A stretch of 38,299 bases of DNA from Thermoanaerobaculia bacterium (GCA_041634115.1 JBFJMD010000001.1:1-38299), one strand, 5' to 3'; counted from the first letter of the stretch, positions 12,289 to 33,429 are shown. The notes: generated by a model from the sequence alone, not told the origin. A program made the numbers and translations.

Positions 12289-12861
12289 GTGCCGAAAGTC
12301 TCCGCGGAGCACCTCGCCGCCCGCCGTGGCGGCATCCTCAAGGCGGCCTTCCGCTGCTTCAGCCGCCAGGGCCTCCATGCCACGACGATGCGCGACATCT
12401 GCCGCGCGGCCAATTTGAGCCCGGGCGCCATCTACAGCTACTTCGAGAGCAAGCAGGCGATCGTCGAGGCGCTGGCGCGCGACAGCCGCGAGCGGATCGT
12501 GGCCTTCCTCGATTCGGTGCCCGCGGGCGCGGATCCCCGGGAGACGGTCGGTCTCAAGCTCGAGGCGCTCATCTCCGCGCTCGAGACGCCCGAGGCGGCG
12601 GACCGCATTCGCCTCGACGTGGCGCTCTGGGCCGAGGCGCTCCGCGACCCGGCCGTGCGCCGCCTCTTCGACGCGGCGACGGAGGGCATCGTCGCCTCCC
12701 TCGCCGGCACGCTCGAGGACGCGCCCGCGAAGGAGGCCGAGGCGCTGGGCCGCGTGGTCCTCGCCCTGTTCGAGGGCCTCGCCCTGCAGAAGGCGGTCGA
12801 TCCCGACGCCGACCTCTCCGCCGCCGCCGCCGTCGCCCGCAGGATCCTGCGCCGGCCCTGA
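12289..12861 (+). CDS. TetR/AcrR family transcriptional regulator
   Basis: HTH region ILKAAFRCFSRQGLHATTMRDICRAANLSPGAIYSYFESKQAIV. I prefer the GTG at 12289 because the upstream in-frame codons (12166-12288) have atypical low-GC third positions. Confidence 0.75.
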   Translation: MPKVSAEHLAARRGGILKAAFRCFSRQGLHATTMRDICRAANLSPGAIYSYFESKQAIVEALARDSRERIVAFLDSVPAGADPRETVGLKLEALISALETPEAADRIRLDVALWAEALRDPAVRRLFDAATEGIVASLAGTLEDAPAKEAEALGRVVLALFEGLALQKAVDPDADLSAAAAVARRILRRP

Positions 12862-12871
12862 GACGTTCCCC

Positions 12872-12900
12872 TTGACAACCGGCGCGCCCTCGCGCAGAAT
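12872..12900 (+). promoter_or_regulatory. Sigma70-like promoter TTGACA-17 nt-CAGAAT
   Basis: TTGACA at 12872-12877, a 17-nt spacer, CAGAAT at 12895-12900. The ATG of the downstream TetR gene is at 12908, only 7 nt after the -10 hexamer. Confidence 0.55.
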
Positions 12901-12917
12901 TTGAACGATGGTTCAAA
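12900..12917. promoter_or_regulatory. Perfect inverted repeat TTTGAAC-GATG-GTTCAAA (candidate TetR operator)
   Basis: 7+7 perfect palindrome with a 4-nt spacer. It spans the predicted transcription start and the ATG (12908-12910) of the TetR gene that is coupled to the Mo-enzyme operon. Confidence 0.55.
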
Positions 12918-13555
12918 CCTCCTCCGATCGACCGCTCTCCGAGCGCGCCGCGGACCGCCGGCGCCAGATCCTGGAGGGCGCGTCGCGGGTCTTCCGGCGC
13001 CGGGGGCTCCACGCGTCCGGCATGCGCGACGTCGCCGCCGAGCTCGGCATGCACGTCGGCAACCTCTACTACTACTTCGAGAACAAGCAGCAGCTCCTCG
13101 CCTACTGCCAGGAGGCGACGCTCGCGGCGCTTCTCGAACTCGCCCGCGAGGTGGAGGCCTCGGGCCTGCCGGCCGACGAGAAGCTGCGGCGGCTGATCGT
13201 CGGCCACGTCGAGCGGCTGAACGAGCGCATCCCGGGCTCCCTGGCGCATCTCGAGGTCGAGGCCCTGGAGCGCGAGGGGCGGGAGCGGATCCAGCCCCGG
13301 CGCGACGCCTACGAGCGGGCGTGGCGCCGGATCGTCCGGCAGGGCGTCGAGGAGGGGCGGCTCGCGAGCGCCGACCCCGAGGTCACCGTGCGGGCGATCC
13401 TCGGGGCGCTCAACTGGACGGTCAAGTGGTTCCGCCTCGACGGCGCCCGCGACGCCGCCGAGATCGGCGAGGAGATGGCGGGGCTCTTCCTCGACGGCCT
13501 GCGCCGGCCGGCCGCCGAAGCGCCGGGACCGCCTCCGGCCGGGGGCACGCGATGA
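12908..13555 (+). CDS. TetR/AcrR family transcriptional regulator (coupled to downstream Mo-hydroxylase genes)
   Basis: RRRQILEGASRVFRRRGLHASGMRDVAAELGMHVGNLYYYFENKQQLL. The stop TGA 13553-13555 overlaps the ATG 13552-13554 of the next gene (ATGA). Confidence 0.85.
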   Translation: MVQTSSDRPLSERAADRRRQILEGASRVFRRRGLHASGMRDVAAELGMHVGNLYYYFENKQQLLAYCQEATLAALLELAREVEASGLPADEKLRRLIVGHVERLNERIPGSLAHLEVEALEREGRERIQPRRDAYERAWRRIVRQGVEEGRLASADPEVTVRAILGALNWTVKWFRLDGARDAAEIGEEMAGLFLDGLRRPAAEAPGPPPAGGTR

Positions 13556-14103
13556 GCCGCCAGACCACCACCCTCACCCTCCGGGTCAACGGCGAGGAGC
13601 GCACCGTCGCCTTCCCCACCCATCACACCCTGCTCGAGGTGCTGCGCGAGGAGTGCGGCCTCACCGGCACCAAGCACGGCTGCGAGCTGGGCGAGTGCGG
13701 CACCTGCGCGGTCCTGGTGGACGGGCGGCCGGTGCTCTCCTGCCTGGCGCTCGCGGCGGAGATGGAGGGGCGCGAGATCGAGACCGTCGAGGGGCTCCAG
13801 CGGGGGAACCGGCTGCACCCGCTGCAGGCGGCCTTCGCCGACCTCGGCGCCGCCCAGTGCGGCTACTGCACGCCGGGCATCCTGCTGGTGGCCAAGGCCC
13901 TGCTGGCCGCGAGCCCGCGGCCCGAGCGGCGCGAGATCGAGGAGGCGCTGGCCGGCAACCTCTGCCGCTGCACCGGCTACCACAAGATCGTCGAGGCCGT
14001 GGAGCAGGCGGCGGCGGTTGCCCGCGGCGAAGAGGCGACCCCGCCCCACGAGACCCTCTACGGAGCCGAGCCGCCCACGACCACCGGCCGCGGAGCGGAA
14101 TAG
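13552..14103 (+). CDS. [2Fe-2S]-binding small subunit of a xanthine dehydrogenase-family molybdoenzyme (HcrC/CoxS-like)
   Basis: TKHGCELGECGTCAVLVDGRPVLSC (plant-type 2Fe-2S) and AAQCGYCTPGILL...NLCRCTGYHKI (second 2Fe-2S). Confidence 0.9.
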   Translation: MSRQTTTLTLRVNGEERTVAFPTHHTLLEVLREECGLTGTKHGCELGECGTCAVLVDGRPVLSCLALAAEMEGREIETVEGLQRGNRLHPLQAAFADLGAAQCGYCTPGILLVAKALLAASPRPERREIEEALAGNLCRCTGYHKIVEAVEQAAAVARGEEATPPHETLYGAEPPTTTGRGAE

Positions 14104-14117
14104 GAGATCGGAGCGCG

Positions 14118-16682
14118 ATGGCCGAGCCCGCGAAGAGACCGGACACACCCCCCCGCGACGCGCCCCGCCGCGAGCGCGAAACGCGCTGGATCGGCAAGCC
14201 CTTCCGGCGCGTGGACGGCCGCGCCAAGGTGACCGGCGCGACCCGCTTCGCCGACGACCTCGTCTTCCCCCGCATGTGCTTCGCGAAGCTGGTGCGCTCG
14301 ACGGTGCCTCACGCCCGCATCCGCGGCATCGACTTCTCCGCCGCCGCCGCGGTCGAGGGCTACCTCGGACACCTGACCGGCGATTGCATGCCCGAGACCT
14401 TCGGCATCCTGCCGGTCTCCCAGGACGAGCACGCGCTCTGCCCCGACAAGGTGCGGATGGTGGGAGACCCGGTGGCCGCGGTGGCGGCGACGACCGAGGA
14501 CGCCGCCGGAGAGGCGGCGCTCGCGGTGAAGGTCGACTACGAGCCGCTGGAGACGATCGCCGACCTGGAAGAGGCGCTCGCCCGCCCCGAGCCCCGCATC
14601 CACGACTACCCCAAGGAGGGAGGCAACGTCCACAAGAAGGTGTCGCTCGCCTTCGGCGACGTCGAGAAGGGGCTCTCGGAGGCCGACCTGGTGCTCGAAG
14701 ACGTCCTCTTCTACGAGGGCAACACCCACCTGCCCATGGAGCAGCACGCGGCCGTGGCGGTGCCCGAGGACGACGACCGCGTCACCGTCTACTCCGCCAC
14801 CCAGACGCCGCACTACGTGCACCGGGCGCTCGCCCGGGTGCTCGGCCTGCCGGCGGCCCGCATCCGGGTCGTGGCCTGCCCGAACGGCGGCGGCTTCGGC
14901 GGCAAGAGCGACCCCTTCAACCACGAGATCGTGGTGGCGAAGATGGCGCTCGAGCTCGGGCGGCCGGTCAAGATCACCCTCACCCGCGAGGAGGTCTTCT
15001 ACTGCCACCGCGGCCGCCATCCGGTGCTGATGCGGTTGAAGACCGGCTTCCGCCGGGACGGCACGCTCACCGCCCAGCACCTCGAGACGGCGCTCGACGG
15101 CGGCGCCTACGGCAGCTACGGCGTCGCCTCGACCTACTACACCGGGGCGCTGCAGACCGTGACCTACCGACTGCCGGCCTACCGCTTCGACGGCGTGCGG
15201 GTCTTCACCAACAAGCCGCCGTGCGGGCCGAAGCGCGGGCACGGCACGCCGCAGCCGCGCTTCGGCTGGGAGGTCCACCTCGACAAGGCGGCCCACCGGC
15301 TGGGGATCGACCCGGCCGAGCTGCGGCTGAAGAACCTCGAGCGCCCGGGCGCGGTGACCGCCAACTGGCTCCAGCTCGGCACGGTGGGGCTCGGCCGCTG
15401 CATCGAGGCGGTGGTGGCGGGCAGCGGCTGGCGCGAGCGCTACGGCAAGCTCCCCGTGGGCCGCGGTCTGGGCTTGGCCTGCGGCTCCTACCTCTGCGGC
15501 GCGGGGCTGCCGATCTACTGGAACCACATGCCGCAGTCGGGCGTCCAGCTCCTGCTCGACCGCTCGGGAGGCGTCTCCGTCTTCTGCGGCGAGACCGAGA
15601 TCGGCCAGGGCTCGGACTCGGTCTTGGCGGCGATCGTCGCCGAGGTCCTCGGGGTGGACCTGGCGGACGTGCGACTCTGCGTCGCCGACACCGACCTGAC
15701 GCCGGTCGATCTCGGCAGCTACTCGTCGCGGGTGACGCTCATGGTCGGCAACGCCGCCCTGCAGGCGGCCGAGCGCGCCCGCGAGCTGCTGGCGACCGCG
15801 GCGGCCGCGCGGCTGGAGGTGTCGAAAGACCGCCTGGCCTTCGCCGAGGGCCGGGTCTTCGACGTCGAAGACCCCGAGCGCGGGCTGAGCTTCCAGGAGG
15901 CCTGCATCGCCGCGGAGGCGCTGCACGGCACGCTGGGCACGGTCGGCTCCTACGTCCCGCCGCGCGCGCCGGGCAGGTACCGGGGAGCGGGGGTGGGGCC
16001 GTCGCCGACCTACTCCTACACCGCGGCCGTCATCGAGGTCGAGGTCGATCCCGGCACCGGCCTCTACCGGCCGCTCCACGTCTGGATCGCGCACGACGTC
16101 GGCAAGTGCATCAACCCGGTGCTGGTGCTGGGCCAGATCGAGGGCTCGGTCTACATGGGCCTGGGCGAGGCGATGATGGAGGAGCAGGCGTTCCGGCGGC
16201 TGCCGAAGCGGCGCTCGGCGGCCCTCGTGCACAAGATGCCGTCGATGCTCGAGTACAAGAGCCCGACCTTCCTGGAGATGCCGCCGATCACCAGCTACAT
16301 CATCGAGGACCCCGACGGCGAGGGGCCCTTCGGCGCCAAGGAGGTCGGCCAGGGGCCGCTGCTGCCGGTGGCGCCGGCGCTCGCCAACGCCATCTTCGAC
16401 GCGGTCGGGGCGCGCGTCGACCAGGTGCCGATCGGCCCGCACATGATCCTGAAGGCGCTGGCGGCGGGGCGGCGGGGCGGCGAGGCCCGCTTCGGACCGG
16501 CCGGCTTTCCCGCGGTGGACTACGGCGAGACCCTCGTGGTGCCGACCCCCGAAGACGGCGGCGACGGTCGCGCCATCAACGACTTCCGCCACGAGCTGCG
16601 CAGCGGCATGCGCTCGGCGAGCGGCACGATGACCTCGCGCGAGGAGGCCGTGAAAGGCGGCAAGGGCCCGCTCAGCACCTAG
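14118..16682 (+). CDS. Molybdopterin-binding large subunit of a xanthine dehydrogenase-family enzyme (HcrA-like)
   Basis: WIGKPFRRVDGRAKVTGATRFADD, YSATQTPHYVHRALA, GGGFGGKSD, ETEIGQGSDSVLAAIVAEVLG, GPFGAKEVGQGPLLPVAPALANAI. AGGAG/GGAG upstream of the ATG at 14118. Confidence 0.9.
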   Translation: MAEPAKRPDTPPRDAPRRERETRWIGKPFRRVDGRAKVTGATRFADDLVFPRMCFAKLVRSTVPHARIRGIDFSAAAAVEGYLGHLTGDCMPETFGILPVSQDEHALCPDKVRMVGDPVAAVAATTEDAAGEAALAVKVDYEPLETIADLEEALARPEPRIHDYPKEGGNVHKKVSLAFGDVEKGLSEADLVLEDVLFYEGNTHLPMEQHAAVAVPEDDDRVTVYSATQTPHYVHRALARVLGLPAARIRVVACPNGGGFGGKSDPFNHEIVVAKMALELGRPVKITLTREEVFYCHRGRHPVLMRLKTGFRRDGTLTAQHLETALDGGAYGSYGVASTYYTGALQTVTYRLPAYRFDGVRVFTNKPPCGPKRGHGTPQPRFGWEVHLDKAAHRLGIDPAELRLKNLERPGAVTANWLQLGTVGLGRCIEAVVAGSGWRERYGKLPVGRGLGLACGSYLCGAGLPIYWNHMPQSGVQLLLDRSGGVSVFCGETEIGQGSDSVLAAIVAEVLGVDLADVRLCVADTDLTPVDLGSYSSRVTLMVGNAALQAAERARELLATAAAARLEVSKDRLAFAEGRVFDVEDPERGLSFQEACIAAEALHGTLGTVGSYVPPRAPGRYRGAGVGPSPTYSYTAAVIEVEVDPGTGLYRPLHVWIAHDVGKCINPVLVLGQIEGSVYMGLGEAMMEEQAFRRLPKRRSAALVHKMPSMLEYKSPTFLEMPPITSYIIEDPDGEGPFGAKEVGQGPLLPVAPALANAIFDAVGARVDQVPIGPHMILKALAAGRRGGEARFGPAGFPAVDYGETLVVPTPEDGGDGRAINDFRHELRSGMRSASGTMTSREEAVKGGKGPLST

Positions 16683-16705
16683 CCCGACCCGGAGACTCCG
16701 ACCCG

Positions 16706-17740
16706 ATGCTGCGCCTTCCGCCCTTTCGCTTCCTCGCCCCGAGCCGCCTCGGCGAAGCCGCGCGCATCCTCGCCGGCGAGGGCCCGGCCGCCCGGCTGGT
16801 GGCGGGCGGCACCGACCTGTGGCCCAACATGAAGCGCCGGCACCAGAAGGCCGAGACGGTCGTCTCGCTCATGCGTATCCCGGAGCTGCGCGGCATCGAG
16901 GCGGGGAACGGCGCGGGCGGCCTGCGGCTGGGAGCGACCGCGCTGCTCGACGACGTGGCGCGCGATCCGCGCGTCCGCGAGCGCCTGCCGGTCCTGGCCC
17001 GCGCCGTCGCCTCGATCTCCTCGCCGCCGCTGCGCAACATGGCGACGATCGGCGGCAACGTCTGCGTGGACACCCGCTGCACGTACTACAACCAGACCGA
17101 GGACTGGCGGCGAGCGATCGACTACTGCCTCAAGGAAGAGGGGACCGTGTGCTGGGTGGCGCCGGGCTCGCCGAAGTGCTGGGCGCACTCGGCCTCGGAC
17201 TCGGCGCCGGTCCTCTGCGCGCTCGGAGCCGAGGCGACGCTGGTCTCCGCCGAGGGCGAGCGCCGGCTGCCGCTCGCCGACCTCTATCTCGACGACGGCA
17301 TCGACTACCTGGTCAAGCGCCCGGAGGAGATCCTGACCGAGATCCGGGTGCCGGCGGCGGCCGAGCGCCCGGGCTGCGCGAGCGCCTTCTGGAAGCTCCG
17401 GCGGCGGGGCTCGATCGACTTCGCGGTGCTCTCGGTCGCGGCGGCGCTGTGGCGCGACCCGGCGGGCGTGGTGACGGACGCGCGGGTCTTCCTCGGAGCG
17501 GTGGCCTCGCGGCCGGCGCCGGTCCCGGCCGCCGCCCGGCTCCTGGTGGGCGGCCGCGCCGACGCCGAGGCGCTCGCCGCCGTCGCGCGGGCGGCGCGCA
17601 AGGTCGCGACGCCGATGGACAACACCGACTTCCTCACCGCCTGGCGGGGGACGATGGTCGAGCGCTACACCGAGGCGGCGCTGCGCGAGGCGGCGGGGCT
17701 CGAGCCCGGTCGCCTGCCGCCGCTCCATCCGCTCTTCTAG
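16706..17740 (+). CDS. FAD-binding subunit of the Mo enzyme with a Cys-rich [4Fe-4S]-type insertion (HcrB-like)
   Basis: LVAGGTDLWPNMK, the FAD-binding PCMH pattern, and ATIGGNVCVDTRCTYYNQTEDWRRAIDYCLKEEGTVCWVAPGSPKCWA with Cys125/141/149/158. Confidence 0.85.
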   Translation: MLRLPPFRFLAPSRLGEAARILAGEGPAARLVAGGTDLWPNMKRRHQKAETVVSLMRIPELRGIEAGNGAGGLRLGATALLDDVARDPRVRERLPVLARAVASISSPPLRNMATIGGNVCVDTRCTYYNQTEDWRRAIDYCLKEEGTVCWVAPGSPKCWAHSASDSAPVLCALGAEATLVSAEGERRLPLADLYLDDGIDYLVKRPEEILTEIRVPAAAERPGCASAFWKLRRRGSIDFAVLSVAAALWRDPAGVVTDARVFLGAVASRPAPVPAAARLLVGGRADAEALAAVARAARKVATPMDNTDFLTAWRGTMVERYTEAALREAAGLEPGRLPPLHPLF

Positions 17741-19556: not shown

Positions 19557-20459
19557 ATGATCGGCCGGTCGCCCATGACCGCCGGCCTCCGCATCCTCGT
19601 CGCCTGCCCGGGCTGCGCGCTCCAGTTCGACGCCACCGGCCTCTCCACCGGCGACCGCTTCCACTGCGCCTGCGGCGAGGCCGTCACCGTGCCGGGCGCG
19701 CGGCCGCACGACGCGGCCGTCGTGCGCTGCTCGTCCTGCGGCGCGCCCCGCCAGGGCAGCGCCCCGGCCTGCGGCTTCTGCGGCTCCGACTTCACCCTCC
19801 ACGAGCGCGACCTGCACACGCTCTGCCCCTCCTGCATGACGCGGATCAGCGACCGCGGCCGCTTCTGCCACTCCTGCGCCCTGCCGATCGCCCCGCAGGG
19901 CTCGGCCGGCGACCCGACCGACCGCGGCTGCCCGGCCTGCGGGCCGGAGGCCCGCCTCCGCGGCCGCCGCTTCGCGGAGGGCCCGGTCGGCCTGCTCGAG
20001 TGCTCGCGCTGCGCCGGCGTCTGGCTGGGGACCGAAGCCTTCCGGGCGCTCGAGCGCCGGGCGCTGCGCGAGGAGACCGATCTCGAGCGGGCCGCGGCGA
20101 GCAGCGTCGCGGCGGCCGGGGGCCCGGCCGCCGCCGGCGGCCCGCTCTACCGGCCCTGCGTCGTCTGCGGCAAGCTCATGCACCGGCGCAACTTCGGCCG
20201 CAAGAGCGGCGTCATCGTCGACACCTGCTCGGCGCACGGCGTCTGGTTCGACTTCGGCGAGCTCGAGCGCATCCTGGACTGGGTGCGGGCCGGCGGACTG
20301 CGCCGCGCCCGCCGCGCCGCCGAGGACGAGCTGCGCCAGCGGCGGCGGCTGGAGCGCCTCGAGCCGGTCGAGCCGATGGAGCCGCCCGGGCGCCGGGCCG
20401 GAGGGGGCCGCGCGCTCGCCGAGCTGCTCGGCTGGCTGGGCGAGGTCCTTACGCGCTAG
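19557..20459 (+). CDS. Multi-zinc-ribbon protein with two TFIIB-type zinc-ribbon (CPxCG...C..C.GVW) modules
   Basis: Five CxxC..CxxC units. CPACGPEARL...LLECSRCAGVWLGTEAF and CVVCGKLMHRRNF...VDTCSAHGVWFDFGELERIL resemble the 'transcription factor zinc-finger' (zf-TFIIB-like) family. The alternative ATG at 19575 is possible. Confidence 0.6.
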   Translation: MIGRSPMTAGLRILVACPGCALQFDATGLSTGDRFHCACGEAVTVPGARPHDAAVVRCSSCGAPRQGSAPACGFCGSDFTLHERDLHTLCPSCMTRISDRGRFCHSCALPIAPQGSAGDPTDRGCPACGPEARLRGRRFAEGPVGLLECSRCAGVWLGTEAFRALERRALREETDLERAAASSVAAAGGPAAAGGPLYRPCVVCGKLMHRRNFGRKSGVIVDTCSAHGVWFDFGELERILDWVRAGGLRRARRAAEDELRQRRRLERLEPVEPMEPPGRRAGGGRALAELLGWLGEVLTR

Positions 20460-20465
20460 ATCGGT

Positions 20466-21023
20466 TCAAGCGGTCGCCGTCTGGGCCTGCTTGTCCTTGG
20501 GGAGGGGGGCCAGCACCATGGTCATCCGGCGCGACTCCAGCCGGGTCCGGGTCTCGACCGTGGCGATGTCCGACACCAGCGCGGACAGCTCGTCGAGGAT
20601 CTCCTCGCCGAGCTCGGGCCGGCGCAGCTGGCGGTAGCGGAAGAAGATGGTCACCTTGACCTTCTTGCCCTTGGACAGGAAGTCGCGGACCTTGGCGGTC
20701 TTGCGCTCCTGGTCGTGGGTGTCGATGTTGGGGCGGTACTTGACTTCCTTGACCTCGATTTGCTGCGTCTTCTTGCGGGCCTCCCGGGCCTGCTTCTCTT
20801 TTTCGTAGCGCAGCTTTCCCCAGTCGAGGATCCGGACCACCGGGGGGTCGGCGTTGGGGCCGACTTCGACCAGGTCGAGGCCGGCTTCTTCGGCTTTCTG
20901 TCGCGCTTCTTCGATCGGCACGATGCCGATTTGGGTGCCGTTCTCGTCGATCAGCCGAACGGGGCTCTTGCGAATGCGGGAGTTGATGCGCGTTTGATCG
21001 GAGGGCTTCGGCGCGTGCCGCAT
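20466..21023 (-). CDS. infC: Translation initiation factor IF-3
   Basis: RINSRIRKSPVRLIDENGTQIGIVPIEEARQKAEEAGLDLVEV...PPVVRILDWGKLRYEKEK...IEVKEVKYRPNIDTHD...KVKVTIFFRYRQL. The ATG at 21023 is the conservative start; an in-frame ATA at 21035 has better SD spacing (see findings). Confidence 0.9.
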   Translation of the reverse strand: MRHAPKPSDQTRINSRIRKSPVRLIDENGTQIGIVPIEEARQKAEEAGLDLVEVGPNADPPVVRILDWGKLRYEKEKQAREARKKTQQIEVKEVKYRPNIDTHDQERKTAKVRDFLSKGKKVKVTIFFRYRQLRRPELGEEILDELSALVSDIATVETRTRLESRRMTMVLAPLPKDKQAQTATA

Positions 21024-21351
21024 GGGTCTGGCTATGTCGTGCTCCTTTCCTCAGGGGTCCCGATCGGGGCCGCCGGGGTCGCGGGGACCGTCCGGGCGAG
21101 ACGCTCCGTCTCGCTCGCGTCGGGCGGGTCGCGGCGCTCGAGGGCGGCCGGGACGCTCACGGGTTGTTCGGGGTCTCCGGGGCGCGCGCCGCGCGCGTGC
21201 GGTCGCTGAGACCGGCGCCGGAGAGTATCGGCCAACTGGCCCCGGGCTCGGCTCCGGGTCGGGCGATCGACGGCCGGAGAGCCGGGGGCCGAATTCCACT
21301 TCGTGGCTTCACCGCGAAAGCCTAACACAAGAGGCCGCGCCGAGCGTGCCG

Positions 21352-23241
21352 TCAAGTCGCCGGTCGCCGATCGTCCAGCGGCGCGATCAGCGGCGCCTCT
21401 TCGACGGTGGGCTGATAGAGGGCCACCGCCACCGACCCCGGGCCCAGGCGCTCCTCGAGCGCCGGCCCGATCTCGCCCGCGATCCACTCCGTCACCGTGA
21501 GCCGCGCGTCGATGAGCCGCCGCAGCTCCTCCGCCGCCGCCGCGGCGCGCGCGTGGCTCAGGCCGACGATCGTCGGCCGCTTCGGGCCCAGCCGCTCGAC
21601 GGCGAGCTCGAAGAGCCTGCCGAGCGCGGCCCGCCGGCCAAACGTCCGCGAGACCGTCACCACCTGACCGCCGGCGAGCGCGAGGATCGGCTTGGCGCCG
21701 AAGAGCCGGGCGCCGCGGGCGCGGAACCGCCCCACTCTCCGCCGGCGGGCGAGGAACTCCGTCCGGTCCGCGAGCATCAGGGCGCGCAGGCGCTCCGCCA
21801 TGCCGACGATCCGCCGGGTGATCTGCGGCGCGTCGCGGCCGCGGCGCGCCAGACGGGCGGCGAAGAGCGCCAGCAGGCCCAGGGCCAGTCCCGCCTGACC
21901 GGTGTCCAGGATCGTGAGCCGCGTGCGCTGCGCGCCGAACGCCTCCTCCTCGCTGGTGGCGAGGCGGTGGGCGGCGGTGCGGGCGTGGACCACGGCTCGC
22001 GAGAAGCGCTCCGACGGCAGCAGCGCCAGCACCGCGTGCTCGTCCAGGAGCGCCGCGAAGCGCTCGGCCCAGAGCCCGACGAGGTCCCCCTCCCTCTCCT
22101 CCGGCAGGGCCTCCCACACCCGGTAGAAGGGGCCCGGCTCGACTTCGGCGGCGTCGGGCGCCCGCTTCGCGGCGGCGGCCAGGGCGGCCGGAGGGGAGAC
22201 CAGCTCGATGCCGTGGCGGGCCGCGAGCCGGGGCGGCAGATCGGCGCCGGGGACGGTCACCACCAGCGGCCGCCGGGTCTCGCCGGCGCGCACCAGCGCC
22301 CCCCGCCGCTCGAGCGCCAGCACCTCGCGCACGATCTCGCCGTCGGGCAGCGGCGAGGCGTCGACGATCCGCTCGATCGCGCAGCCCTGCTGGGCGGCCT
22401 CGAGGATCTCGCGCTCGAGAGCGCCGAAGGACCGCTCGAAGAAGCCGGCGCCGAGCTCGACCCGGAAGCGGGTGCCGGCGGGAGGGGCCTCGCCCAGCGC
22501 GTCCTCGATCGCCGCCTCGACCAGGGAGTCGAGGTCGTCGTGCATCTCCCGCCGCGGCGCCGGGCCTTCGGTGAAAACCACCCGGACGGTCCCCCGGGTG
22601 CGGCGGGCGAGCCGGCAGAAAGCCTTGAGCCCGGTCGCCCGCCCGGCGCGGGCGGCGACGATCTCGCCGTCGCGCAGCTCGATCGCGCCGTCGGGGTGCT
22701 CGACCCGGGCGTCGGCGCCGTGCCGCGCGAGTTCGCGCAGCAGGTCGAAGATCGACCGCGCCCCGAGCTCGCCGGCGAGCGAGCCCGCCACCGAGTCGGG
22801 CACCAGGCCGAGGGCGACCGAGAGCAGCAGGCGCCGCAACCGCTTCGCCACCTCCGCCTCGCGCAGGCCGCCGACCGGCAGCAGCGCGGCGCCGCCTTCG
22901 CCGGCCTCGATCGGCCCGGAGCGCTCGCCCAGCAGCAGCCGCCGGCTCGCTCCGCGGAGCTCTCCGAGCTCGCGGAAAAGGGGCCCTCCCTCGGCCAGGT
23001 CGGCCGGCGCCACGACGACCGCGGGCGCCAGCGAGCCCGCCAGACGGGCGCCCTCGGCGCCGTCGGCCGCGGGCACCACCTCCCACCCGTCGGCGGAGAG
23101 GACGAGACCCAGGGTCCGGCGCCGCTCCCGATCGGGGTCGACCAGCAGCACGCAGGGCTGCGGTCCGCTCGGCCGCCGCGGGCCCGGCGACGCCCCGGAA
23201 GCCCTCCCCGCCGGCTCCCTGCGGGCGGGGCGCGGCGACAT
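21352..23241 (-). CDS. Degenerate REC - PATAN/DUF4388 - wHTH-like - DegV-like fusion protein
   Basis: ATG at 23241. VLLVDPDRERRRTLGLVL...VVVAPADL (receiver-like, conserved Lys missing). GSLAGELGARSIFDLLRELARHGADARVEHPDGAIELRDGEIVAARAGRATGLKAFCRL (DUF4388 pattern). The C-terminal half follows the DegV pattern: VVTVPGADLPPRLAARHGIELV, LTILDTGQAGLALGLLAL, LFGAKPILALAGGQVVTVSRTFGRRAAL, IGPALEERLGPGSVAVAL. Confidence 0.7.
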   Translation of the reverse strand: MSPRPARREPAGRASGASPGPRRPSGPQPCVLLVDPDRERRRTLGLVLSADGWEVVPAADGAEGARLAGSLAPAVVVAPADLAEGGPLFRELGELRGASRRLLLGERSGPIEAGEGGAALLPVGGLREAEVAKRLRRLLLSVALGLVPDSVAGSLAGELGARSIFDLLRELARHGADARVEHPDGAIELRDGEIVAARAGRATGLKAFCRLARRTRGTVRVVFTEGPAPRREMHDDLDSLVEAAIEDALGEAPPAGTRFRVELGAGFFERSFGALEREILEAAQQGCAIERIVDASPLPDGEIVREVLALERRGALVRAGETRRPLVVTVPGADLPPRLAARHGIELVSPPAALAAAAKRAPDAAEVEPGPFYRVWEALPEEREGDLVGLWAERFAALLDEHAVLALLPSERFSRAVVHARTAAHRLATSEEEAFGAQRTRLTILDTGQAGLALGLLALFAARLARRGRDAPQITRRIVGMAERLRALMLADRTEFLARRRRVGRFRARGARLFGAKPILALAGGQVVTVSRTFGRRAALGRLFELAVERLGPKRPTIVGLSHARAAAAAEELRRLIDARLTVTEWIAGEIGPALEERLGPGSVAVALYQPTVEEAPLIAPLDDRRPAT

Positions 23242-23264
23242 GGGCCGGTCTGCACGCGGCCGCC

Positions 23265-24785
23265 TCAGAGGGCGGCGGCCCCTCTCGGGTCGAGCAGACG
23301 CAAGAGGCCGAAGAGCGACTCCGGCGCCTCTTCGACGAGACGCCAGCGGCCGCGGCCCTCGATCAGGGAGCCGGCGGCGGCGCGGGTCTCCTCCGAAGGG
23401 GCCAGGATCACGCCGCCCGCGCGGCCCGCCTGCTCCAGCCGGGCGACGACGCCGGCGACCGACTCCCGCTCCTCCAGGCCGCTCAGCCAGACGATCACCG
23501 CGGCGCAGGCGGGCACGACCGCTTCGACCCGCTCGCGCACCGCGGCGCTCAACTGCTGGACGTGCAGCGCCACCGCCCCCGCCTCGGTCGAGAGGATGCC
23601 GGTGCCGCCCCGGCGCAGCTCGAGCTGCTCGGCCAGCTCGGCGAGGGCCTCGGGGCGCCACGAGGGCGGCGCCGCCGCGAGCAGCGCCCTCAGCCGCGGC
23701 CAGGCCCCCGGCTCGGCCACCAGCAGGAAGGGCAGCGGCGAGCGCTCGAGACCCCGCTCGCGAGCCGCCGAGAGCAGCTCCACCAGCGCCGTCTCGAGGA
23801 CCTCCGAGACGGCGATCTCGGTGGTGGACGGCAGGTCCTCGAGCCGCAGGGCGAGGTCGGCGACCTCCACCGCTCCCTGCTCCCGCAGCCAGGCTGCGGC
23901 GAGCCGCGTCTTCTGGGGCGCGGCCCACTGCTGCTCGACGAGATCGTAGAGGCGGGCGGCCGGATGTGCTTCGAGATGCTCGAGCATCTGCCGGATCGGC
24001 AGCTCGGCGAATTCACCCTCCGGGTCCGGCGGCCGCTTTCCCGTGAGCTGGAGAGGGGTGCCGGTGGCCGGCAGGAAGGCCCGACGCTGCTCGAGCTCGT
24101 CGTCGAGCCAGGCGGCCCGCAGCAGCGCCCGCCGCACCTTGAGCGCCGGCGGCGCCTGCTCGCGGTCCACGGGCTCGGCCTCGGCCACGAACCGGAAGCG
24201 CCCCCGCTTCAGCCCCAGCATCGCCAGCATCGCCTCTTCGCCGCGCAGGCTCTCCCATTCGGCGAAGGTCGGCAGCCCGGCCACCACGGCGAGCCGTCCG
24301 GTGCCGCGCCGGTCCCAGACCAGGAGGCGGCCGTCCTTGCCGGCGTGCTCGACGAACTGCAGCACCTCCCAGAGCGGGTGGGCGTCGAGCCGGCCCTCGA
24401 GCGCCACCGGCTCGACCGGGCTCTGGCCGCTCAGCCGCTGGGCCCGGAGCACCAGCTCCTCGAAGTCGACCGGGCGGACGATCAGCTCGTTCGCCCCCGC
24501 CCGCAGCACCTCGACGCGGCGCGTCCCGTCGAGCGGGTCCGAGACCGCGAGGATCGGGACGGCGCGCGTCGCCGGCTGGTCGCGCAGCGCCCGGATCACC
24601 TCGATGCCGGGCACCACCGGGAGGCTCAGGTCCACGACGACGAGGTCGAGCTGCCGCTGGCCGGCGGCGGCGAGCGCCTGGGCGCCGTCGTCCACGACCT
24701 CGGTCTCGAAGCCGGCGCCGTGCAGCCGGTCCTGGACCAGCGCCGCAAAGGCGGCGTCCGACTCTACGACGAGTGCGCGACTCAA
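23265..24785 (-). CDS. Response regulator receiver - PATAN/DUF4388 - wHTH-like - unassigned alpha/beta C-terminal domain
   Basis: TTG start. ALVVESD...DLVVVDLSLPVVPGIEVI...ILAVSD...LIVRPV (REC, with Lys to Arg at the conserved position). LEGRLDAHPLWEVLQFVEHAGKDGRLLVWDRRGTGRLAVVAGLPTFAEWESLRGEEAMLAML (DUF4388). The C-terminal ~155 aa have no assignment. Confidence 0.75.
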   Translation of the reverse strand: MSRALVVESDAAFAALVQDRLHGAGFETEVVDDGAQALAAAGQRQLDLVVVDLSLPVVPGIEVIRALRDQPATRAVPILAVSDPLDGTRRVEVLRAGANELIVRPVDFEELVLRAQRLSGQSPVEPVALEGRLDAHPLWEVLQFVEHAGKDGRLLVWDRRGTGRLAVVAGLPTFAEWESLRGEEAMLAMLGLKRGRFRFVAEAEPVDREQAPPALKVRRALLRAAWLDDELEQRRAFLPATGTPLQLTGKRPPDPEGEFAELPIRQMLEHLEAHPAARLYDLVEQQWAAPQKTRLAAAWLREQGAVEVADLALRLEDLPSTTEIAVSEVLETALVELLSAARERGLERSPLPFLLVAEPGAWPRLRALLAAAPPSWRPEALAELAEQLELRRGGTGILSTEAGAVALHVQQLSAAVRERVEAVVPACAAVIVWLSGLEERESVAGVVARLEQAGRAGGVILAPSEETRAAAGSLIEGRGRWRLVEEAPESLFGLLRLLDPRGAAAL

Positions 24786-24887
24786 GGGATCGGTCTCTCT
24801 TCCATTGTCGCCGGCCCGGGTCGGGCGGCCGTCTCAATATAGCCTATTCGCTATGATCCCGGCACTTGCGACCGAGGACGGCACCCG

Positions 24888-25943
24888 GTGTCGAAGAGCT
24901 CCCCGCGCCAGCCCATCTATCCGCTCACTTTCGAGCCCGTGTTCAAGAGCTATCCCTGGGGCGGGCGCGGGCTCGAGACGCGGCTGGGGCGGGCGATTCC
25001 GGACGGGGTGGTGGCCGAGAGCTGGGAGATCTCCGCGCACCCGCAGGGCGAGACGAGAGTCGCCGGCGGCCCGCTCGCCGGCCTCACCCTCAGCGAAGTC
25101 GCCGCCCGGCTCGGCGCCGACCTGCTCGGCCGCGGAGGCGGCGGCGGCGCGAGCCCCTTTCCGCTGCTCGTCAAGCTGCTCGACGCCCACACCTGGCTGT
25201 CGGTGCAGGTCCACCCGGACGACGACGACGCCCTGCGGCTGGGCGAGGGCGCGGGCAAGACCGAGATGTGGGTGGTGCTCGACGCGGCGCCGGACTCGCG
25301 CCTGCTCTACGGCCTCGAGACCGGCGTCGGGCGCGCCGAGCTGGAGGCGGCGATCGCGGCCGGCCGGCTGGTCGAGGCCCTGGTCGAGATCGAGGCCCGC
25401 GCCGGCGACGTCTTCTTCATTCCAGCCGGCACCGTTCACGCCCTCGGACCGGGCCTGATCGTGGCCGAGATCCAGCAGACCAGCGACACCACCTACCGGC
25501 TGTTCGACTGGAACCGCACCGGCCCCGACGGCCGCGGCCGGCCGCTCCACCTCCGGCGGGCGCTCGAGGTCATCGACTACGCCGCCGCGCCGAAGGCCCC
25601 GGTCGAGCCGCGCCGCGTCGCCGGCGGGCCGGCGGCCGTCGAGGAGCTGGTCTTCTGCTCCCACTTCCGGTGCGAGCGCCTGCGGCTCGAGCCGGGCGCC
25701 GTCCACCGCGGCGCCTGCGACGGCGAGACCTTCGAGATCTGGGCGGCGCTCGCGGGCGAGGCGACCCTCGCCGCGGGGGGCGAGGCGCTGCCGCTCCCCG
25801 CCGTGAGCTGGGCGCTCCTGCCGGCGGCTCTCGGCGAGTTCGAGATCCGCTGCCGCGAGGCCGCGGTGCTGCTGCGGGTCCGCGGACCCGGCGCCGCCGA
25901 CCGCCGAGCGGAGACGCGAAGACGAAAGGAGCGCGAGCGATGA
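24888..25943 (+). CDS. manA: Class I mannose-6-phosphate isomerase
   Basis: GTG start. YPLTFEPVFKSYPWGG, ESWEISAHP, FPLLVKLLDAHTWLSVQVHPDD, KTEMWVVL, FFIPAGTVHALGPGLIVAEIQQTSDTTYRLFDWNR (metal ligands Q/H/E/H). Confidence 0.8.
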   Translation: MSKSSPRQPIYPLTFEPVFKSYPWGGRGLETRLGRAIPDGVVAESWEISAHPQGETRVAGGPLAGLTLSEVAARLGADLLGRGGGGGASPFPLLVKLLDAHTWLSVQVHPDDDDALRLGEGAGKTEMWVVLDAAPDSRLLYGLETGVGRAELEAAIAAGRLVEALVEIEARAGDVFFIPAGTVHALGPGLIVAEIQQTSDTTYRLFDWNRTGPDGRGRPLHLRRALEVIDYAAAPKAPVEPRRVAGGPAAVEELVFCSHFRCERLRLEPGAVHRGACDGETFEIWAALAGEATLAAGGEALPLPAVSWALLPAALGEFEIRCREAAVLLRVRGPGAADRRAETRRRKERER

Positions 25944-29606: not shown

Positions 29607-30929
29607 CTACCCGTCGCGGGCGCAGCGGAAGCCGGCGAAGATCTGCCGGCGGTTCGGATAGTCCCAGTTGCGGAAGGTGCCGCGGGCGACCGCGGGCCGG
29701 GTCGCCCAGGAGCCGCCGCGCAGCACCTTGTACTCGTCGCCGAAGAAGACCTCCGAGTACTCCTCGTAGGGGAACGCGCGGAAACCGGGAAAGGGCCGGA
29801 AATCCGAGGCGGTCCACTCCCAGACGTCGCCGAGGAGCTGCTCGACCCCGTAGGCGCTGGCCCCCTCCGGGTAGGCGCCGCGCGCGGCGGGCGCGAAGAC
29901 GAGCTGATCGAGGTTCGCCCGCTCCGGACCGGGCGGCTCGTCCCCCCAGGGCCAGCGTCGGGCAGCGCCGGCGACGGGGTCCCAGAGCGCCGCCTTCTCC
30001 CACTCCGCCTCGGTGGGCAGCCGCTTGCCCGCCCAGCGCGCGTAGGCCTCGGCCTCGTGATGGCCGACGTGGACGACCGGCGCCTCCCGCGGCAGCGGGC
30101 CGGAGCGGTCCATGAAGCGCGCCCGCCACTGGCCGCCTTCGCGGAACCAGTTCGCGGGCGCCTCGGCGCCCGACTCGGCGAGCCACGCCCGACCCGCCGC
30201 CGACCAGGGATCGGGGCGCCGGTAGCCGCCGTCCTCGACGAACTCCAGGTATTCGCCCTGGCTCACCGGGAAGCGGTCGATCCAGAACTCCGCGACCTCG
30301 GCCTCGTGCCGCGGCTTCTCGTTGTCGTAGGCGAAGCCGGCGCCCTCCCAGCCCATCCGGAAGGGCCCGCCGGGGATCCGCGCCATGCCGGCCGCGCCCG
30401 GCCGGCCGGGCGGCGGCTCGCGGCGGCGCGGCGGCGCGTAGCCGGGCCGCTCCAGGACCTGCATTGCCTGCAGCAGGGTCTCCTGGTGCTGCTCCTCGTG
30501 CTCGGCGACCATCTCGTAGACGAAGCCGTCGGCGAGCAGCTCGGCGCCGCCCCGCCCGGCGATGCCGTCGTCGAGGACCGTCAGGGTCCGCTCGCGGACC
30601 CGCTCGAGATAGTCGAGCAGCGCCTCGCCGCTCGGCAGCGGCAGGCGCTCCCGGGTCGAGCGCGGCTGGAGCACCGGGTCGAAGAGGCGCCCGGCCTCGG
30701 CGTCGATCGGCGCCAGCCCGGCCAGCTCGCGGACCAGCCAGCTCTCCTCGAAGTGGGCGACGTGGCCGAGGTCCCAGATCATGGGGCTCAGGATGGGGGT
30801 GTGCTGGCGGCGCAGCGTCTCCCAGTCGAGGACCGAGACGAGCTCGAGGGTGCGCTCGCGAACGCGGCGCAGCCGGCCGCGGATCGCCTCCGGGTCGAGC
30901 GAGCGGATGGGGTCGGCGTCCGTGGTCAA
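29607..30929 (-). CDS. egtB: EgtB-like sulfoxide synthase (DinB_2 + FGE-sulfatase domains; hercynine oxygenase family)
   Basis: TTG start with GAGGAG 5 nt upstream. SPMIWDLGHVAHFEESW, VAEHEEQHQETLL (His triad), NEKPRHEAEVAEFWIDRFPVS, GDVWEWTASDF, VLRGGSWAT. Confidence 0.75.
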   Translation of the reverse strand: MTTDADPIRSLDPEAIRGRLRRVRERTLELVSVLDWETLRRQHTPILSPMIWDLGHVAHFEESWLVRELAGLAPIDAEAGRLFDPVLQPRSTRERLPLPSGEALLDYLERVRERTLTVLDDGIAGRGGAELLADGFVYEMVAEHEEQHQETLLQAMQVLERPGYAPPRRREPPPGRPGAAGMARIPGGPFRMGWEGAGFAYDNEKPRHEAEVAEFWIDRFPVSQGEYLEFVEDGGYRRPDPWSAAGRAWLAESGAEAPANWFREGGQWRARFMDRSGPLPREAPVVHVGHHEAEAYARWAGKRLPTEAEWEKAALWDPVAGAARRWPWGDEPPGPERANLDQLVFAPAARGAYPEGASAYGVEQLLGDVWEWTASDFRPFPGFRAFPYEEYSEVFFGDEYKVLRGGSWATRPAVARGTFRNWDYPNRRQIFAGFRCARDG

Positions 30930-31038: not shown

Positions 31039-31560
31039 TCAGGGGAGGGTCCAGCCGGGGAGGTCGTCGAGGCTCTCGAGGGGGCCGAGGCGGGCGGCGA
31101 TCTCGGCCAGGGTCTCGCCGGTCAGCGGGTGGACCAGGTCGGGCGCGACGTCGGCAAGCGGCACCGCGACGTGAGCGCGGCGCAGGATGTCGGGGTCCGG
31201 GATCTCGAGCCCCTGCGCCGGATCGCGGAGCACCAGGTCGCCGTAGAGCGCGATGTCGAGGTCGAGCGTGCGCGGCGCGTCGGCGTCGGCGCCGCGCTCG
31301 CGGCCCAGCTCCCGCTCGACGCGCCGCAGGACCTCGTGCTTCAAGGCGAGCGGCGCGAGCGGCGTCTCGGCGAGGAGCGCCGCGTTGAGAAAGGTCGGCC
31401 CGTCGGTCGCGCCCACCGGCTCCGTCACGTAGACGCGGGACAGGGCGAGGATCCGCAGGCGGGGCGCCAGCCGGAGCAGCGCCGCGGGCAGGTTGCGCCG
31501 CGGCCCGATGTTGGAGCCGACCGAGATCAGCGTCCGGGCCGGCCGCTCCCCCGCGCTCAC
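31039..31560 (-). CDS. folK: 2-amino-4-hydroxy-6-hydroxymethyldihydropteridine diphosphokinase (HPPK)
   Basis: LISVGSNIGPRRNL...SRVYVTEPVG...FLNAALLAET...RTLDLDIALYGD...LEIPDPDILRRAHVAVPLADV. The GTG start overlaps the folB stop (GTGA). Confidence 0.85.
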   Translation of the reverse strand: MSAGERPARTLISVGSNIGPRRNLPAALLRLAPRLRILALSRVYVTEPVGATDGPTFLNAALLAETPLAPLALKHEVLRRVERELGRERGADADAPRTLDLDIALYGDLVLRDPAQGLEIPDPDILRRAHVAVPLADVAPDLVHPLTGETLAEIAARLGPLESLDDLPGWTLP

Positions 31561-31934
31561 TTCGCCTCGAAGTCCGACCGCCGGCGCTCGATCTCCACCC
31601 CCACCGAGGCGGCGAACCGGAGCGCCCCCGGCTTTTCCACCCGCACGATCACCCGCTCGGCGCCGTGGTCCACGATCGCGATCCGCGCGATCGCCGCCGC
31701 CAGCGCCTCCACCAGGAAGTGGGAGGACCCCTCGACGTGCCCGATCACCGCCTTGGTCAGGGTCCGGTAGTTGAGCGCGTCCGCGACCTCGTCCGAGGCC
31801 GCGGCGGCCCGGGTGTCGCAGAACACGGTCATGTTGATCAGAATGTCCTGCTCCTTCTCGCGCTCCCAGTCGTTGACGCCGATGATGCCGCGCACGAGAA
31901 GGTCGCGAATCAGGATCCTGTCGCCGTCGGACAC
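31557..31934 (-). CDS. folB: Dihydroneopterin aldolase
   Basis: RILIRDLLVRGIIGVNDWEREKEQDILINMTV...DALNYRTLTKAVIGHVEGSSHFLVEALAAAIA. GTG start with GGGAGGAG 4 nt upstream. Confidence 0.85.
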   Translation of the reverse strand: MSDGDRILIRDLLVRGIIGVNDWEREKEQDILINMTVFCDTRAAAASDEVADALNYRTLTKAVIGHVEGSSHFLVEALAAAIARIAIVDHGAERVIVRVEKPGALRFAASVGVEIERRRSDFEAK

Positions 31935-32880: not shown

Positions 32881-33429
32881 ATGGCCAGAAGAAACGGACG
32901 GCCCCGCGCTCTCGCCGGGCGCCGGCGCGAGCGGCCGCGCGGATTCACCCTCATCGAGGTCCTGGTCGTCGTCGCGATCCTCGGCATCATCGCCGCCCTG
33001 CTCATCCCCAACTTCCTGCTGTCGCTCCACAAGGCGAAGCAGAAGCGGACCATGTCCGACATCCACGAGGTCGGGCAGAGCATGGCCTCCTGGCTCTTCG
33101 ACCAGGTCGGCGCCGCGGCGGCGGGCTCTTCGAGCACGACGTTCGACCTCAGCGACTACGGATCGACGATCGACGCCGCGGATCTCGAGGCGCTCCTCGT
33201 GCCCATGTATCTGCCCGGACTGCCGAGCCGGGACTCCTGGGGCTTCGGCTACGAGTACTACCTGAAGACCGCCGCCCTCCACGCCGACAAGATCATGGCG
33301 ATCCGCAGCCCGGGGCGGGACGGCGAGTTCTCTTCGACCTACTCCTTCGGCACGTTCGAGGTGACCGACTTCGACCAGGACCTGGTCTGGGCGGACGGCA
33401 ACTTCATCCACTGGCCCGGCTCCGGCTGA
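32881..33429 (+). CDS. Prepilin-type N-terminal cleavage/methylation protein, GspG-like pseudopilin
   Basis: Basic leader MARRNGRPRALAGRRRERPRG followed by FTLIEVLVVVAILGIIAALLIPNF (class III signal). C-terminal DSWGFGYEYY...IRSPGRDGEF resembles GspG. Confidence 0.75.
   Translation: MARRNGRPRALAGRRRERPRGFTLIEVLVVVAILGIIAALLIPNFLLSLHKAKQKRTMSDIHEVGQSMASWLFDQVGAAAAGSSSTTFDLSDYGSTIDAADLEALLVPMYLPGLPSRDSWGFGYEYYLKTAALHADKIMAIRSPGRDGEFSSTYSFGTFEVTDFDQDLVWADGNFIHWPGSG

Follow-up and report, generated by a model that had tools for sequence, protein, structure and literature searches.

A receiver-PATAN gene pair in Thermoanaerobaculia with a C-terminal DegV/FakB-fold domain that is degenerate in the lineage described

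The window analysed here is a 38,299-nucleotide (nt) stretch of DNA from a Thermoanaerobaculia bacterium (GCA_041634115.1 JBFJMD010000001.1:1-38299), and its main subject is a pair of adjacent genes, protA and protB, whose products share an N-terminal module composed of a receiver-type domain, a PATAN (DUF4388) core and a winged-helix-like segment, followed in protB by a DegV domain of the FakB fold and in protA by an orphan alpha/beta domain. The analysis established this architecture, the paralogy of the two proteins at the level of sequence profiles, the conservation of the family to which they belong, its taxonomic range, the pairing of the genes and a lineage-specific loss of FakB residues. 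Our preferred reading, to which we give an even chance, is that the pair is a two-gene operon of PATAN-based protein-protein signalling adaptors which is lipid-sensing at family level, with the DegV domain repurposed in the lineage found here. The genes and their spacer are as follows.

23265..24785, minus strand: protA gene, 506 amino acids (aa), TTG start; atypical receiver, PATAN, winged-helix-like segment and orphan alpha/beta domain
23242..23264, minus strand: spacer from the protA stop to the protB ATG, 23 nt, operon-like, read from the sequence
21352..23241, minus strand: protB gene, 629 aa, ATG start; pseudo-receiver, PATAN, winged-helix-like segment and DegV

Both open reading frames (ORFs) carry a strong coding signal, in a window with a GC content of 67-78%. 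The first-pass annotation of this DNA had described two same-strand genes 23 nt apart, which is how they lie, and the peptides it quoted (IRQMLEHLEAHPAARLYDLVEQ...LREQGAVEV, LEREILEAAQQGCAIERIVDA...LERRGALVRA, VPGADLP and FSRA) were all found as written. A database protein, P0058, is 100% identical to protA. For protB there is an alternative GTG start at 23151, giving a product of 599 aa as in the NCBI-derived record P0001, and our own gene caller picked the GTG too; this start would make the intergenic gap wider, with nothing else affected. The pair is flanked by infC and a phosphomannose isomerase (PMI) gene, and the gene order PMI-protA-23 nt-protB-infC is retained in relatives at 77% identity. 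The 23-nt spacing recurs in the relatives L083 and L084, and spacings across 27 paired loci range from about 4 to 35 nt. Between the protB stop and the start of infC (IF-3) is a 328-nt non-coding gap (21024-21351), with a comparable gap in L083 (7875-8238). The gap in the window had no Rfam, promoter or terminator match; the Rfam scan of the whole window gave zero matches, and promoter and terminator scans of 20400-25000 gave no signal beyond chance.

The shared N-terminal module is visible at profile level only. BLASTP of protA against protB returned nothing significant (best E = 5), whereas HHalign comparison of 35 aligned protB relatives (alignment A1) with 8 protA relatives gave a single colinear match between residues 30-363 of protB and 3-364 of protA, covering about 320 columns (probability 98.3%, E = 1.7e-14). 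The receiver-like domains (92.6%, E = 4.5e-7) and the PATAN cores (97.7%, E = 1.9e-12) also matched when compared domain by domain. Furthermore, the hidden Markov models (HMMs) of the two families match each other's ORFs in the fetched loci, with E values of about 1e-6 to 1e-12. By these comparisons protA and protB are distant paralogues across their first about 320 residues, and the common module proposed in the first-pass annotation holds in that form. AlphaFold2 (AF2) models were built from a 35-sequence alignment for protB (mean predicted local distance difference test score, pLDDT, 80.3) and from 9 sequences for protA (mean pLDDT 84.7). The first three structural units of the protA model are equivalent to those of protB, and the modelled domain order is the one first suggested, receiver, PATAN and winged-helix-like segment, then DegV in protB. 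The domains were delimited as follows.

24420..24785, minus strand: protA receiver, aa 1-122; Asp10, Asp52 and Ser82 kept, conserved Lys is Arg104
24081..24404, minus strand: protA PATAN/DUF4388 core, aa 128-235; Pfam PF14332
23856..24056, minus strand: protA winged-helix-like segment, aa 244-310; probably belongs to the PATAN unit as its C-terminal subdomain
23265..23828, minus strand: protA C-terminal orphan alpha/beta domain, aa 320-506; without a P-loop
22807..23160, minus strand: protB pseudo-receiver, aa 28-145; by HHalign to the protA-family receiver, with Ala79 and without helix alpha4
22492..22794, minus strand: protB PATAN/DUF4388 core, aa 150-250; by HHalign to the protA PATAN, includes KAFCR
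22276..22476, minus strand: protB winged-helix-like segment, aa 256-322; AF2 elements, weak helix-turn-helix (HTH) matches
21352..22275, minus strand: protB DegV/FakB-fold domain, aa 323-629 plus stop; ligand-binding and FakA-docking motifs degenerate

Searched against Pfam, the window protB matched DegV only, with neither REC nor DUF4388 found at E < 1. The proposed check against PF00072, PF14332 and PF02645 was hence borne out above cut-off for the receiver and DUF4388 of protA and the DegV domain of protB, but not for the first two domains of protB. Among the protB relatives a Pfam REC match was present in just two of 35 (E = 0.06), and the protB receiver-type domain is, by profile comparison, which is the sole basis for its receiver homology, a pseudo-receiver. 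Its Ala79 aligns with the protA phospho-acceptor Asp52 and the conserved Lys is missing. The AF2 model shows aa 30-144 as a flavodoxin-like beta-alpha domain (strands E and helices H: E30-34, H38-50, E54-58, H61-71, E75-79, H87-94, E100-105, E118-122, H128-144) in which there is no helix alpha4 between beta4 and beta5. The PATAN core is better represented in the family: DUF4388 was matched directly by 33 of the 35 relatives (best E = 3.8e-9), though not by the window protB itself, the motif KAFCR (K206-A-F-C-R210) is invariant in the protB alignment, and aa 154-248 are modelled as a beta-rich core.

In protA the first two domains are recognised directly. Residues 5-114 match Response_reg PF00072 (E = 1.9e-17, 63.9 bits, cut-off 30.2) and residues 130-230 match DUF4388 PF14332 (E = 7.9e-11, 42.5 bits, cut-off 25), while Foldseek comparison of the modelled receiver with solved receiver domains gave template-modelling scores (TMt) of 0.84-0.92. 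The protA receiver is near-canonical, but its catalytic quintet is incomplete, with Arg104-Pro where Lys-Pro is expected; both receivers are atypical, as the first reading of the sequence had it. In a 32-sequence alignment of the protA family (A3) the Arg-Pro is nearly constant, and many members have Gly or Glu at the phospho-acceptor position of Asp52, Gly together with a 2-residue deletion. Because the phospho-acceptor is Gly or Glu in much of the family, phosphorylation is, as read from this alignment, not the conserved input of the protA family, and most of its receivers appear to be phosphorylation-independent. The window protA could still be phosphorylated, its Asp52 being kept (codon 24630-24632).

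The C-terminal domain of protA (aa 320-506) is modelled with good confidence (pLDDT about 85-93) and an element order of b-a-a-b-b-a-b-a-b-a-b-a. Pfam and PDB sequence searches with it were empty, a homologue search with this domain alone added just two fragments, and among all the proteins fetched it is confined to those of the protA family. When full-length protA was compared with the PDB by Foldseek, receiver matches dominated and the C-terminal fold was not identifiable. Comparison with a viral fold library gave weak matches to Rab/Ras/Ran G-domains (E 1.7e-3 to 1.2e-2, TMt 0.36-0.43), and the modelled element order is Ras-like. The P-loop GxxxxGK[ST] by which a Ras-like small GTPase would be recognised is absent from the domain and from the family alignment, and we treat the Ras-like identity as a lead from the model, not a finding. 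The domain was also considered as a second receiver or as a degenerate DegV half, and both were rejected when HHalign against every other domain of the pair came out empty.

The DegV domain of protB is secure by sequence and by modelled structure. Residues 332-609 match Pfam DegV PF02645 (E = 1.9e-28, 100 bits, cut-off 27), the protein scores 105.9 bits against NCBIfam TIGR00762 (cut-off 99.7), and the top 45 Foldseek matches of the model in the PDB are all DegV/FakB (TMt 0.67-0.79, best 0.75-0.79), which upholds the DegV-like C-terminus first assigned from the sequence alone. Apart from an Ala-rich hairpin region at 354-372, modelled at low confidence, the pLDDT of the domain is mostly 83-96. 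Against the FakB1 equivalog model NF038249 it scores 26.3 bits, far under the cut-off of 350. In FakB2 of Streptococcus suis the carboxylate of the fatty acid is bound by Thr61, Ser93 and His264, with Arg170 stabilising it, and FakA docks at Leu181 and Arg202 (PMC10848957). To map these residues, the canonical family member P0009 was aligned to Staphylococcus aureus FakB2 (4x9x) and the sites were tabulated in 139 family sequences. About 133 of the 139 are canonical (Asp-Ser, Ser/Thr, Ser..Ser.Thr, Arg-Gly-Gly-Arg, Arg, His/Asn), and most family members retain the carboxylate-binding residues together with the equivalents of Arg170 and of the FakA-docking Arg202. The degenerate exception is the clade of the window, with three members (window/P0001, P0002 and P0003); P0056 and P0057 form a second divergent, degenerate DegV pair. 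The substitutions in the window protB, two of which (in the Asp-Ser and LSxT motifs) had been noticed in the first-pass annotation, are these.

N-terminal Asp-Ser motif: Val-Pro
Thr61 equivalent: Arg383
Thr of LSxT: Ala416
Gly-Gly of GGRI: Arg-Arg
FakA-docking Arg202 equivalent: Phe534
His264 equivalent: Arg598

The two serines of the LS motif are unchanged, and so is Arg502, the Arg170 equivalent. The substitutions are also found in P0002 and P0003, the Thr61 equivalent varying within the clade as Arg, Thr or Ala. The window protB is hence set apart from FakB in its carboxylate contacts, its FakA-docking Arg and its equivalog score. Ratios of non-synonymous to synonymous substitution (dN/dS) were calculated by the Nei-Gojobori method (NG86) for the window against the P0002 and P0003 loci; at about 95% GC at third codon positions the following values are rough, though comparable between domains.

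DegV, whole domain: dN/dS 0.32-0.34
DegV, N-terminal half: dN/dS 0.45-0.49
DegV, C-terminal half: dN/dS 0.23-0.28
PATAN core: dN/dS 0.42-0.45
Pseudo-receiver: dN/dS 0.16-0.20

The DegV domain of the window is under purifying selection and is not decaying.

Relatives of protB fall into 57 clusters at 90% identity (P0001-P0057), most of them with precomputed PF14332 and PF02645 matches, and their public names are generic ("DegV family protein", with proteins of the pair also named "response regulator"). A scan of one genome per species gave at least 104 protB-family loci, of which 80 were retained and, with two fetched earlier, made up 82 loci for local ORF and HMM analysis. Almost all of the retained 80 come under the titles Thermoanaerobaculia, Thermoanaerobaculaceae, Holophagales or Acidobacteriota. 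In several genomes there are two protB-family copies, and several have one paired and one solo copy. By a neighbourhood survey of the kind that had been proposed, a full-length, same-strand protA lies immediately upstream in 27 of the 82 loci, and the pair is conserved in many Thermoanaerobaculia/Holophagales genomes; in a further 11 the upstream DNA was too short to score pairing. In a neighbour-joining tree protB splits cleanly into a clade of paired copies and one of solo copies. A deeper branch, also paired, is that of the window clade together with L019 and L056, L019 having been scored "solo" only because its ORF continues in frame from protA. A radical SAM/SPASM gene follows some paired copies. 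A gene for an Exo_endo_phos protein (endonuclease/exonuclease/phosphatase) precedes protB on the same strand in 26 of the 44 solo loci (e.g., L031:6908-7693).

One protein joins the two halves of the pair in a single chain. P0098 (NCBI MCH9647075.1, 945 aa) is encoded on a 266-kb contig of a metagenome-assembled genome labelled Deltaproteobacteria, outside Acidobacteriota. It begins with a fully canonical receiver, followed by PATAN core and winged-helix segment, and this part has 36% identity to protA 1-309 (310 residues, E = 8e-43); after a low-complexity linker the protein continues as a complete protB-type pseudo-receiver-PATAN-winged-helix-DegV protein. This fusion offers Rosetta-stone-type sequence support for a functional link between protA and protB. 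Two other candidate fusions, P0164 and P0154, looked like read-through, their tails being out-of-frame low-complexity translations, and were not counted.

The winged-helix-like segment had been taken for a winged HTH, and the modelled fold order is compatible with that reading: the models show E244-247, H257-261, H264-273, H279-284, H290-302 and E306-308 in protA, and H274-284, H289-295, H300-312 and E316-319 in protB. DNA binding is not favoured by charge or by context. The segment has a net charge of -5 in the window protA (family mean -2.4) and -2 in the window protB (family mean -2.2), and the third, putative recognition helix of protB is acidic family-wide (mean charge -2.6). When the N-terminal module of protB (301 positions) served as the profile in an exhaustive search, there were 2,850 clusters (50% identity) at E <= 1e-3, 323 at E <= 1e-10 and 67 at E <= 1e-30. 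Many of the matches reach profile position about 295, including REC-PATAN proteins of 315-330 aa which end there and a 297-aa PilZ-PATAN protein; other contexts of the PATAN unit are REC-PATAN-Hpt-REC-GGDEF, REC-PATAN-TPR and four cNMP-PATAN repeats. The Pfam DUF4388 model has 122 positions and the winged-helix-like segment lies outside its coverage. Since the segment accompanies the DUF4388 core in unrelated proteins, we read it as probably the C-terminal part of a full PATAN unit and not a DNA binder. A Roadblock/LC7 assignment made by eye for the C-terminus of P0065 was not confirmed by Pfam and was dropped.

These results bear on a further interpretation, that both proteins are transcription factors in which the winged helix binds DNA and the DegV or orphan domain senses a ligand, in the style of one-component regulators. 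Both models do place a three-helix-plus-strand winged-helix-like fold directly N-terminal to the last domain, and weak MarR_2, TrmB and HTH_34 matches occur in five of the 35 protB relatives (best E = 5.3e-4) and in one REC-PATAN protein of ~500 aa from the module search, without the protA C-terminal domain. Every one of these matches is under its Pfam cut-off, however, the segment is net negative in both families with an acidic recognition helix in protB, and in short proteins of the REC-PATAN and PilZ-PATAN types it comes after the DUF4388 core, as an integral PATAN subdomain would. We regard this interpretation as very unlikely. A working FakB, in which protB would hand an acyl chain to the FakA kinase for phospholipid synthesis and the N-terminal module and protA would only localise or regulate it, is another interpretation, which we judge unlikely. 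The functional residues including the Arg202 equivalent are intact in most members, the DegV fold resembles the FakB1 and FakB2 structures and an acyltransferase gene adjoins one solo locus, but the window clade has other residues in place of the Thr61, His264 and Arg202 equivalents and of the Asp-Ser motif, the FakB1 equivalog score is 26 bits against 350, and neither FakA nor PlsX nor PlsY is a conserved neighbour. Moreover, the matched DegV/FakB structures (23 distinct sequences) are all chains of 277-320 residues, too short for such an N-terminal fusion.

The loss of functional residues, together with the long branch of the window clade, the low-confidence Ala-rich stretch at 354-372 and the raised dN/dS of the DegV N-terminal half, could also mean that protB is here a decaying or inert paralogue, with its degenerate DegV domain and its pairing lacking a current role. 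This we consider highly improbable given that the reading frame is unbroken both in the window and in the two sequenced relatives (77% and 83% identity), that the clade is represented in the records by proteins from 18 contigs at 99% and by several further ones at 77-83%, that dN/dS is well under 1 for all domains, that synteny and spacer are conserved, and that the DegV fold is predicted confidently.

The reading we prefer, PATAN-based signalling adaptors acting as an operon-encoded pair, is set out here as a putative mechanism. protA and protB would act together, probably via their like modules or via the family-specific C-terminal domain of protA, and the PATAN units would provide the output by protein-protein binding. 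In the family as a whole the DegV domain would be a fatty-acid or lipid sensor coupling lipid status to PATAN output, a role proposed because all FakB carboxylate contacts and the FakA-docking Arg are kept. The protA receiver may serve as a second input, phosphorylation-dependent at most where Asp52 is kept, as in the window lineage. In that lineage the DegV domain most likely no longer presents fatty acid to FakA and may instead serve as a module for structure or interaction, or have another ligand; having lost FakB residues while remaining under purifying selection, it has most likely been repurposed. The lipid- or ligand-gated pair imagined in the first-pass annotation thus suits the wider family with its FakB residues, but suits the window poorly, where these residues are replaced.

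Several observations weigh against this reading. The winged-helix-like segments of protA and protB are not significantly related when compared alone by HHalign (4.8%, 0.008), and the order receiver-PATAN-further domain is unlike that of the PatA-type regulators, in which PATAN is N-terminal and the receiver C-terminal; the partners known for PATAN are from cyanobacteria, which have that reversed order. protA is missing from 44 of the 82 loci, and protB can thus function alone; the fusion P0098 is a single case and is without the protA C-terminal domain. Neighbourhood clustering did not find type IV pilus, MglA/MglB or FakA genes to be conserved neighbours, and no PlsX or PlsY gene either. To these may be added the roughness of the dN/dS values already mentioned, and all functional steps proposed for the pair rest on analogy.

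A more elaborate scheme, which we put forward as a tentative and rather doubtful possibility, is that of lipid-gated PATAN switches. In this scheme a FakB-type sensor was recruited and forms a heteromer with the receiver-PATAN partner, the orphan domain (possibly a Ras-like domain without a P-loop) reads or controls the state of DegV, and membrane lipid status is passed on to the PATAN target, which might be the type IV pilus or polarity machinery. The window lineage would then hold a "pseudo-FakB", either ligand-independent or with a changed ligand.

As in the cyanobacterial PATAN-REC regulators PatA, PixG, PixE and LsiR, PATAN/DUF4388 is joined to a CheY-like receiver; several of those are phosphorylation-independent "orphan" regulators in which PATAN is the output through PilB1/PilC binding (bioRxiv 10.1101/2021.06.11.447907). 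The Synechocystis PATAN domain by itself binds both PilB1 and PilC and suffices for output (bioRxiv 10.1101/2021.06.11.447907). PATAN genes are recurrent near MglA/MglB (PMC4316618), and PATAN has been linked to pilus-dependent motility and to MglA/MglB neighbourhoods (bioRxiv 10.1101/2021.06.11.447907; PMC4316618). Our pair differs from the PatA type in carrying a further domain at the C-terminus, which is DegV for protB and the orphan domain for protA, in being a paralogous gene pair, in its acidobacterial host and in having no chemotaxis-like or pilus gene context. The REC-PATAN core-winged-helix-like module is also that of other REC-PATAN and PATAN proteins, such as Myxococcus SgnC, MXAN_3211 and MXAN_4965. 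Matches of the module search include many REC-PATAN proteins of about 320 and about 500 aa, and among the matches sampled outside the family none has DegV or the protA C-terminal domain.

protB shares the EDD/DegV fold and the Pfam/TIGR family with FakB1 and FakB2 of S. aureus, FakB2 of S. suis and TM841 of Thermotoga maritima. Most members of the fused family also keep, like FakB, the Ser/Thr, Ser and His/Asn carboxylate binders and the Arg170 and Arg202 equivalents, whereas in the window clade nothing but the serines of the LS motif and the equivalent of Arg170 is left. DegV/FakB proteins are known as stand-alone fatty-acid carriers for the Fak kinase, about 280-320 aa long, whereas in protB the DegV domain forms the end of a protein of signalling type with about 600 aa. 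Our literature search, within the library available to it, found no paper on a PATAN-DegV fusion, in line with the first-pass annotation, but the architecture is not unique to the window, being that of a family of at least 104 loci. We rate the pair as a variant within the PATAN-domain regulators and not as a new category, with the window copy as the degenerate form of its family. PATAN domains are known to serve motility and polarity regulators as protein-binding outputs. A conserved PATAN-DegV fusion paired with a receiver-PATAN paralogue would be a first indication of a FakB-type domain serving as a signalling module, and would offer a handle on the coupling of lipid status and cell behaviour in the poorly known soil Acidobacteria (Thermoanaerobaculia). 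The family provides a natural comparison of canonical with degenerate DegV domains and of paired with solo copies, and the current generic annotation obscures both the shared module and the pairing.

Elsewhere in the window, about 11 kb from the pair, three minus-strand genes with 4-nt overlaps (6676-12046) have the look of a cyclic di-GMP signalling operon.

10511-12046, minus strand: REC-PAS-histidine kinase
8418-10514, minus strand: REC-PAS-GGDEF-EAL protein
6676-8421, minus strand: DUF885 protein

A very large minus-strand ORF of 1369 aa (637-4746) has a strong coding signal and, as its sole Pfam match, a weak one to PLA2_B/lysophospholipase (E = 7e-4, residues 93-150). Two tandem TetR-family regulators are followed on the plus strand (12289-17740) by a three-subunit molybdenum hydroxylase (2Fe-2S, molybdenum cofactor (MoCo)-binding and flavin adenine dinucleotide (FAD) subunits) of the xanthine dehydrogenase/CO dehydrogenase type. 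A DinB_2 and FGE-sulfatase protein (29607-30929, minus strand) adjoins folB (31557-31934) and folK/HPPK (31039-31560), and its architecture is one we take to be that of the EgtB-type sulfoxide synthases of ergothioneine synthesis. The window has only one pilus-related signal, an N-terminal motif of prepilin-type methylation (N_methyl, E = 7e-9) in a small plus-strand protein (32881-33429) encoded some 8 kb away from the pair.

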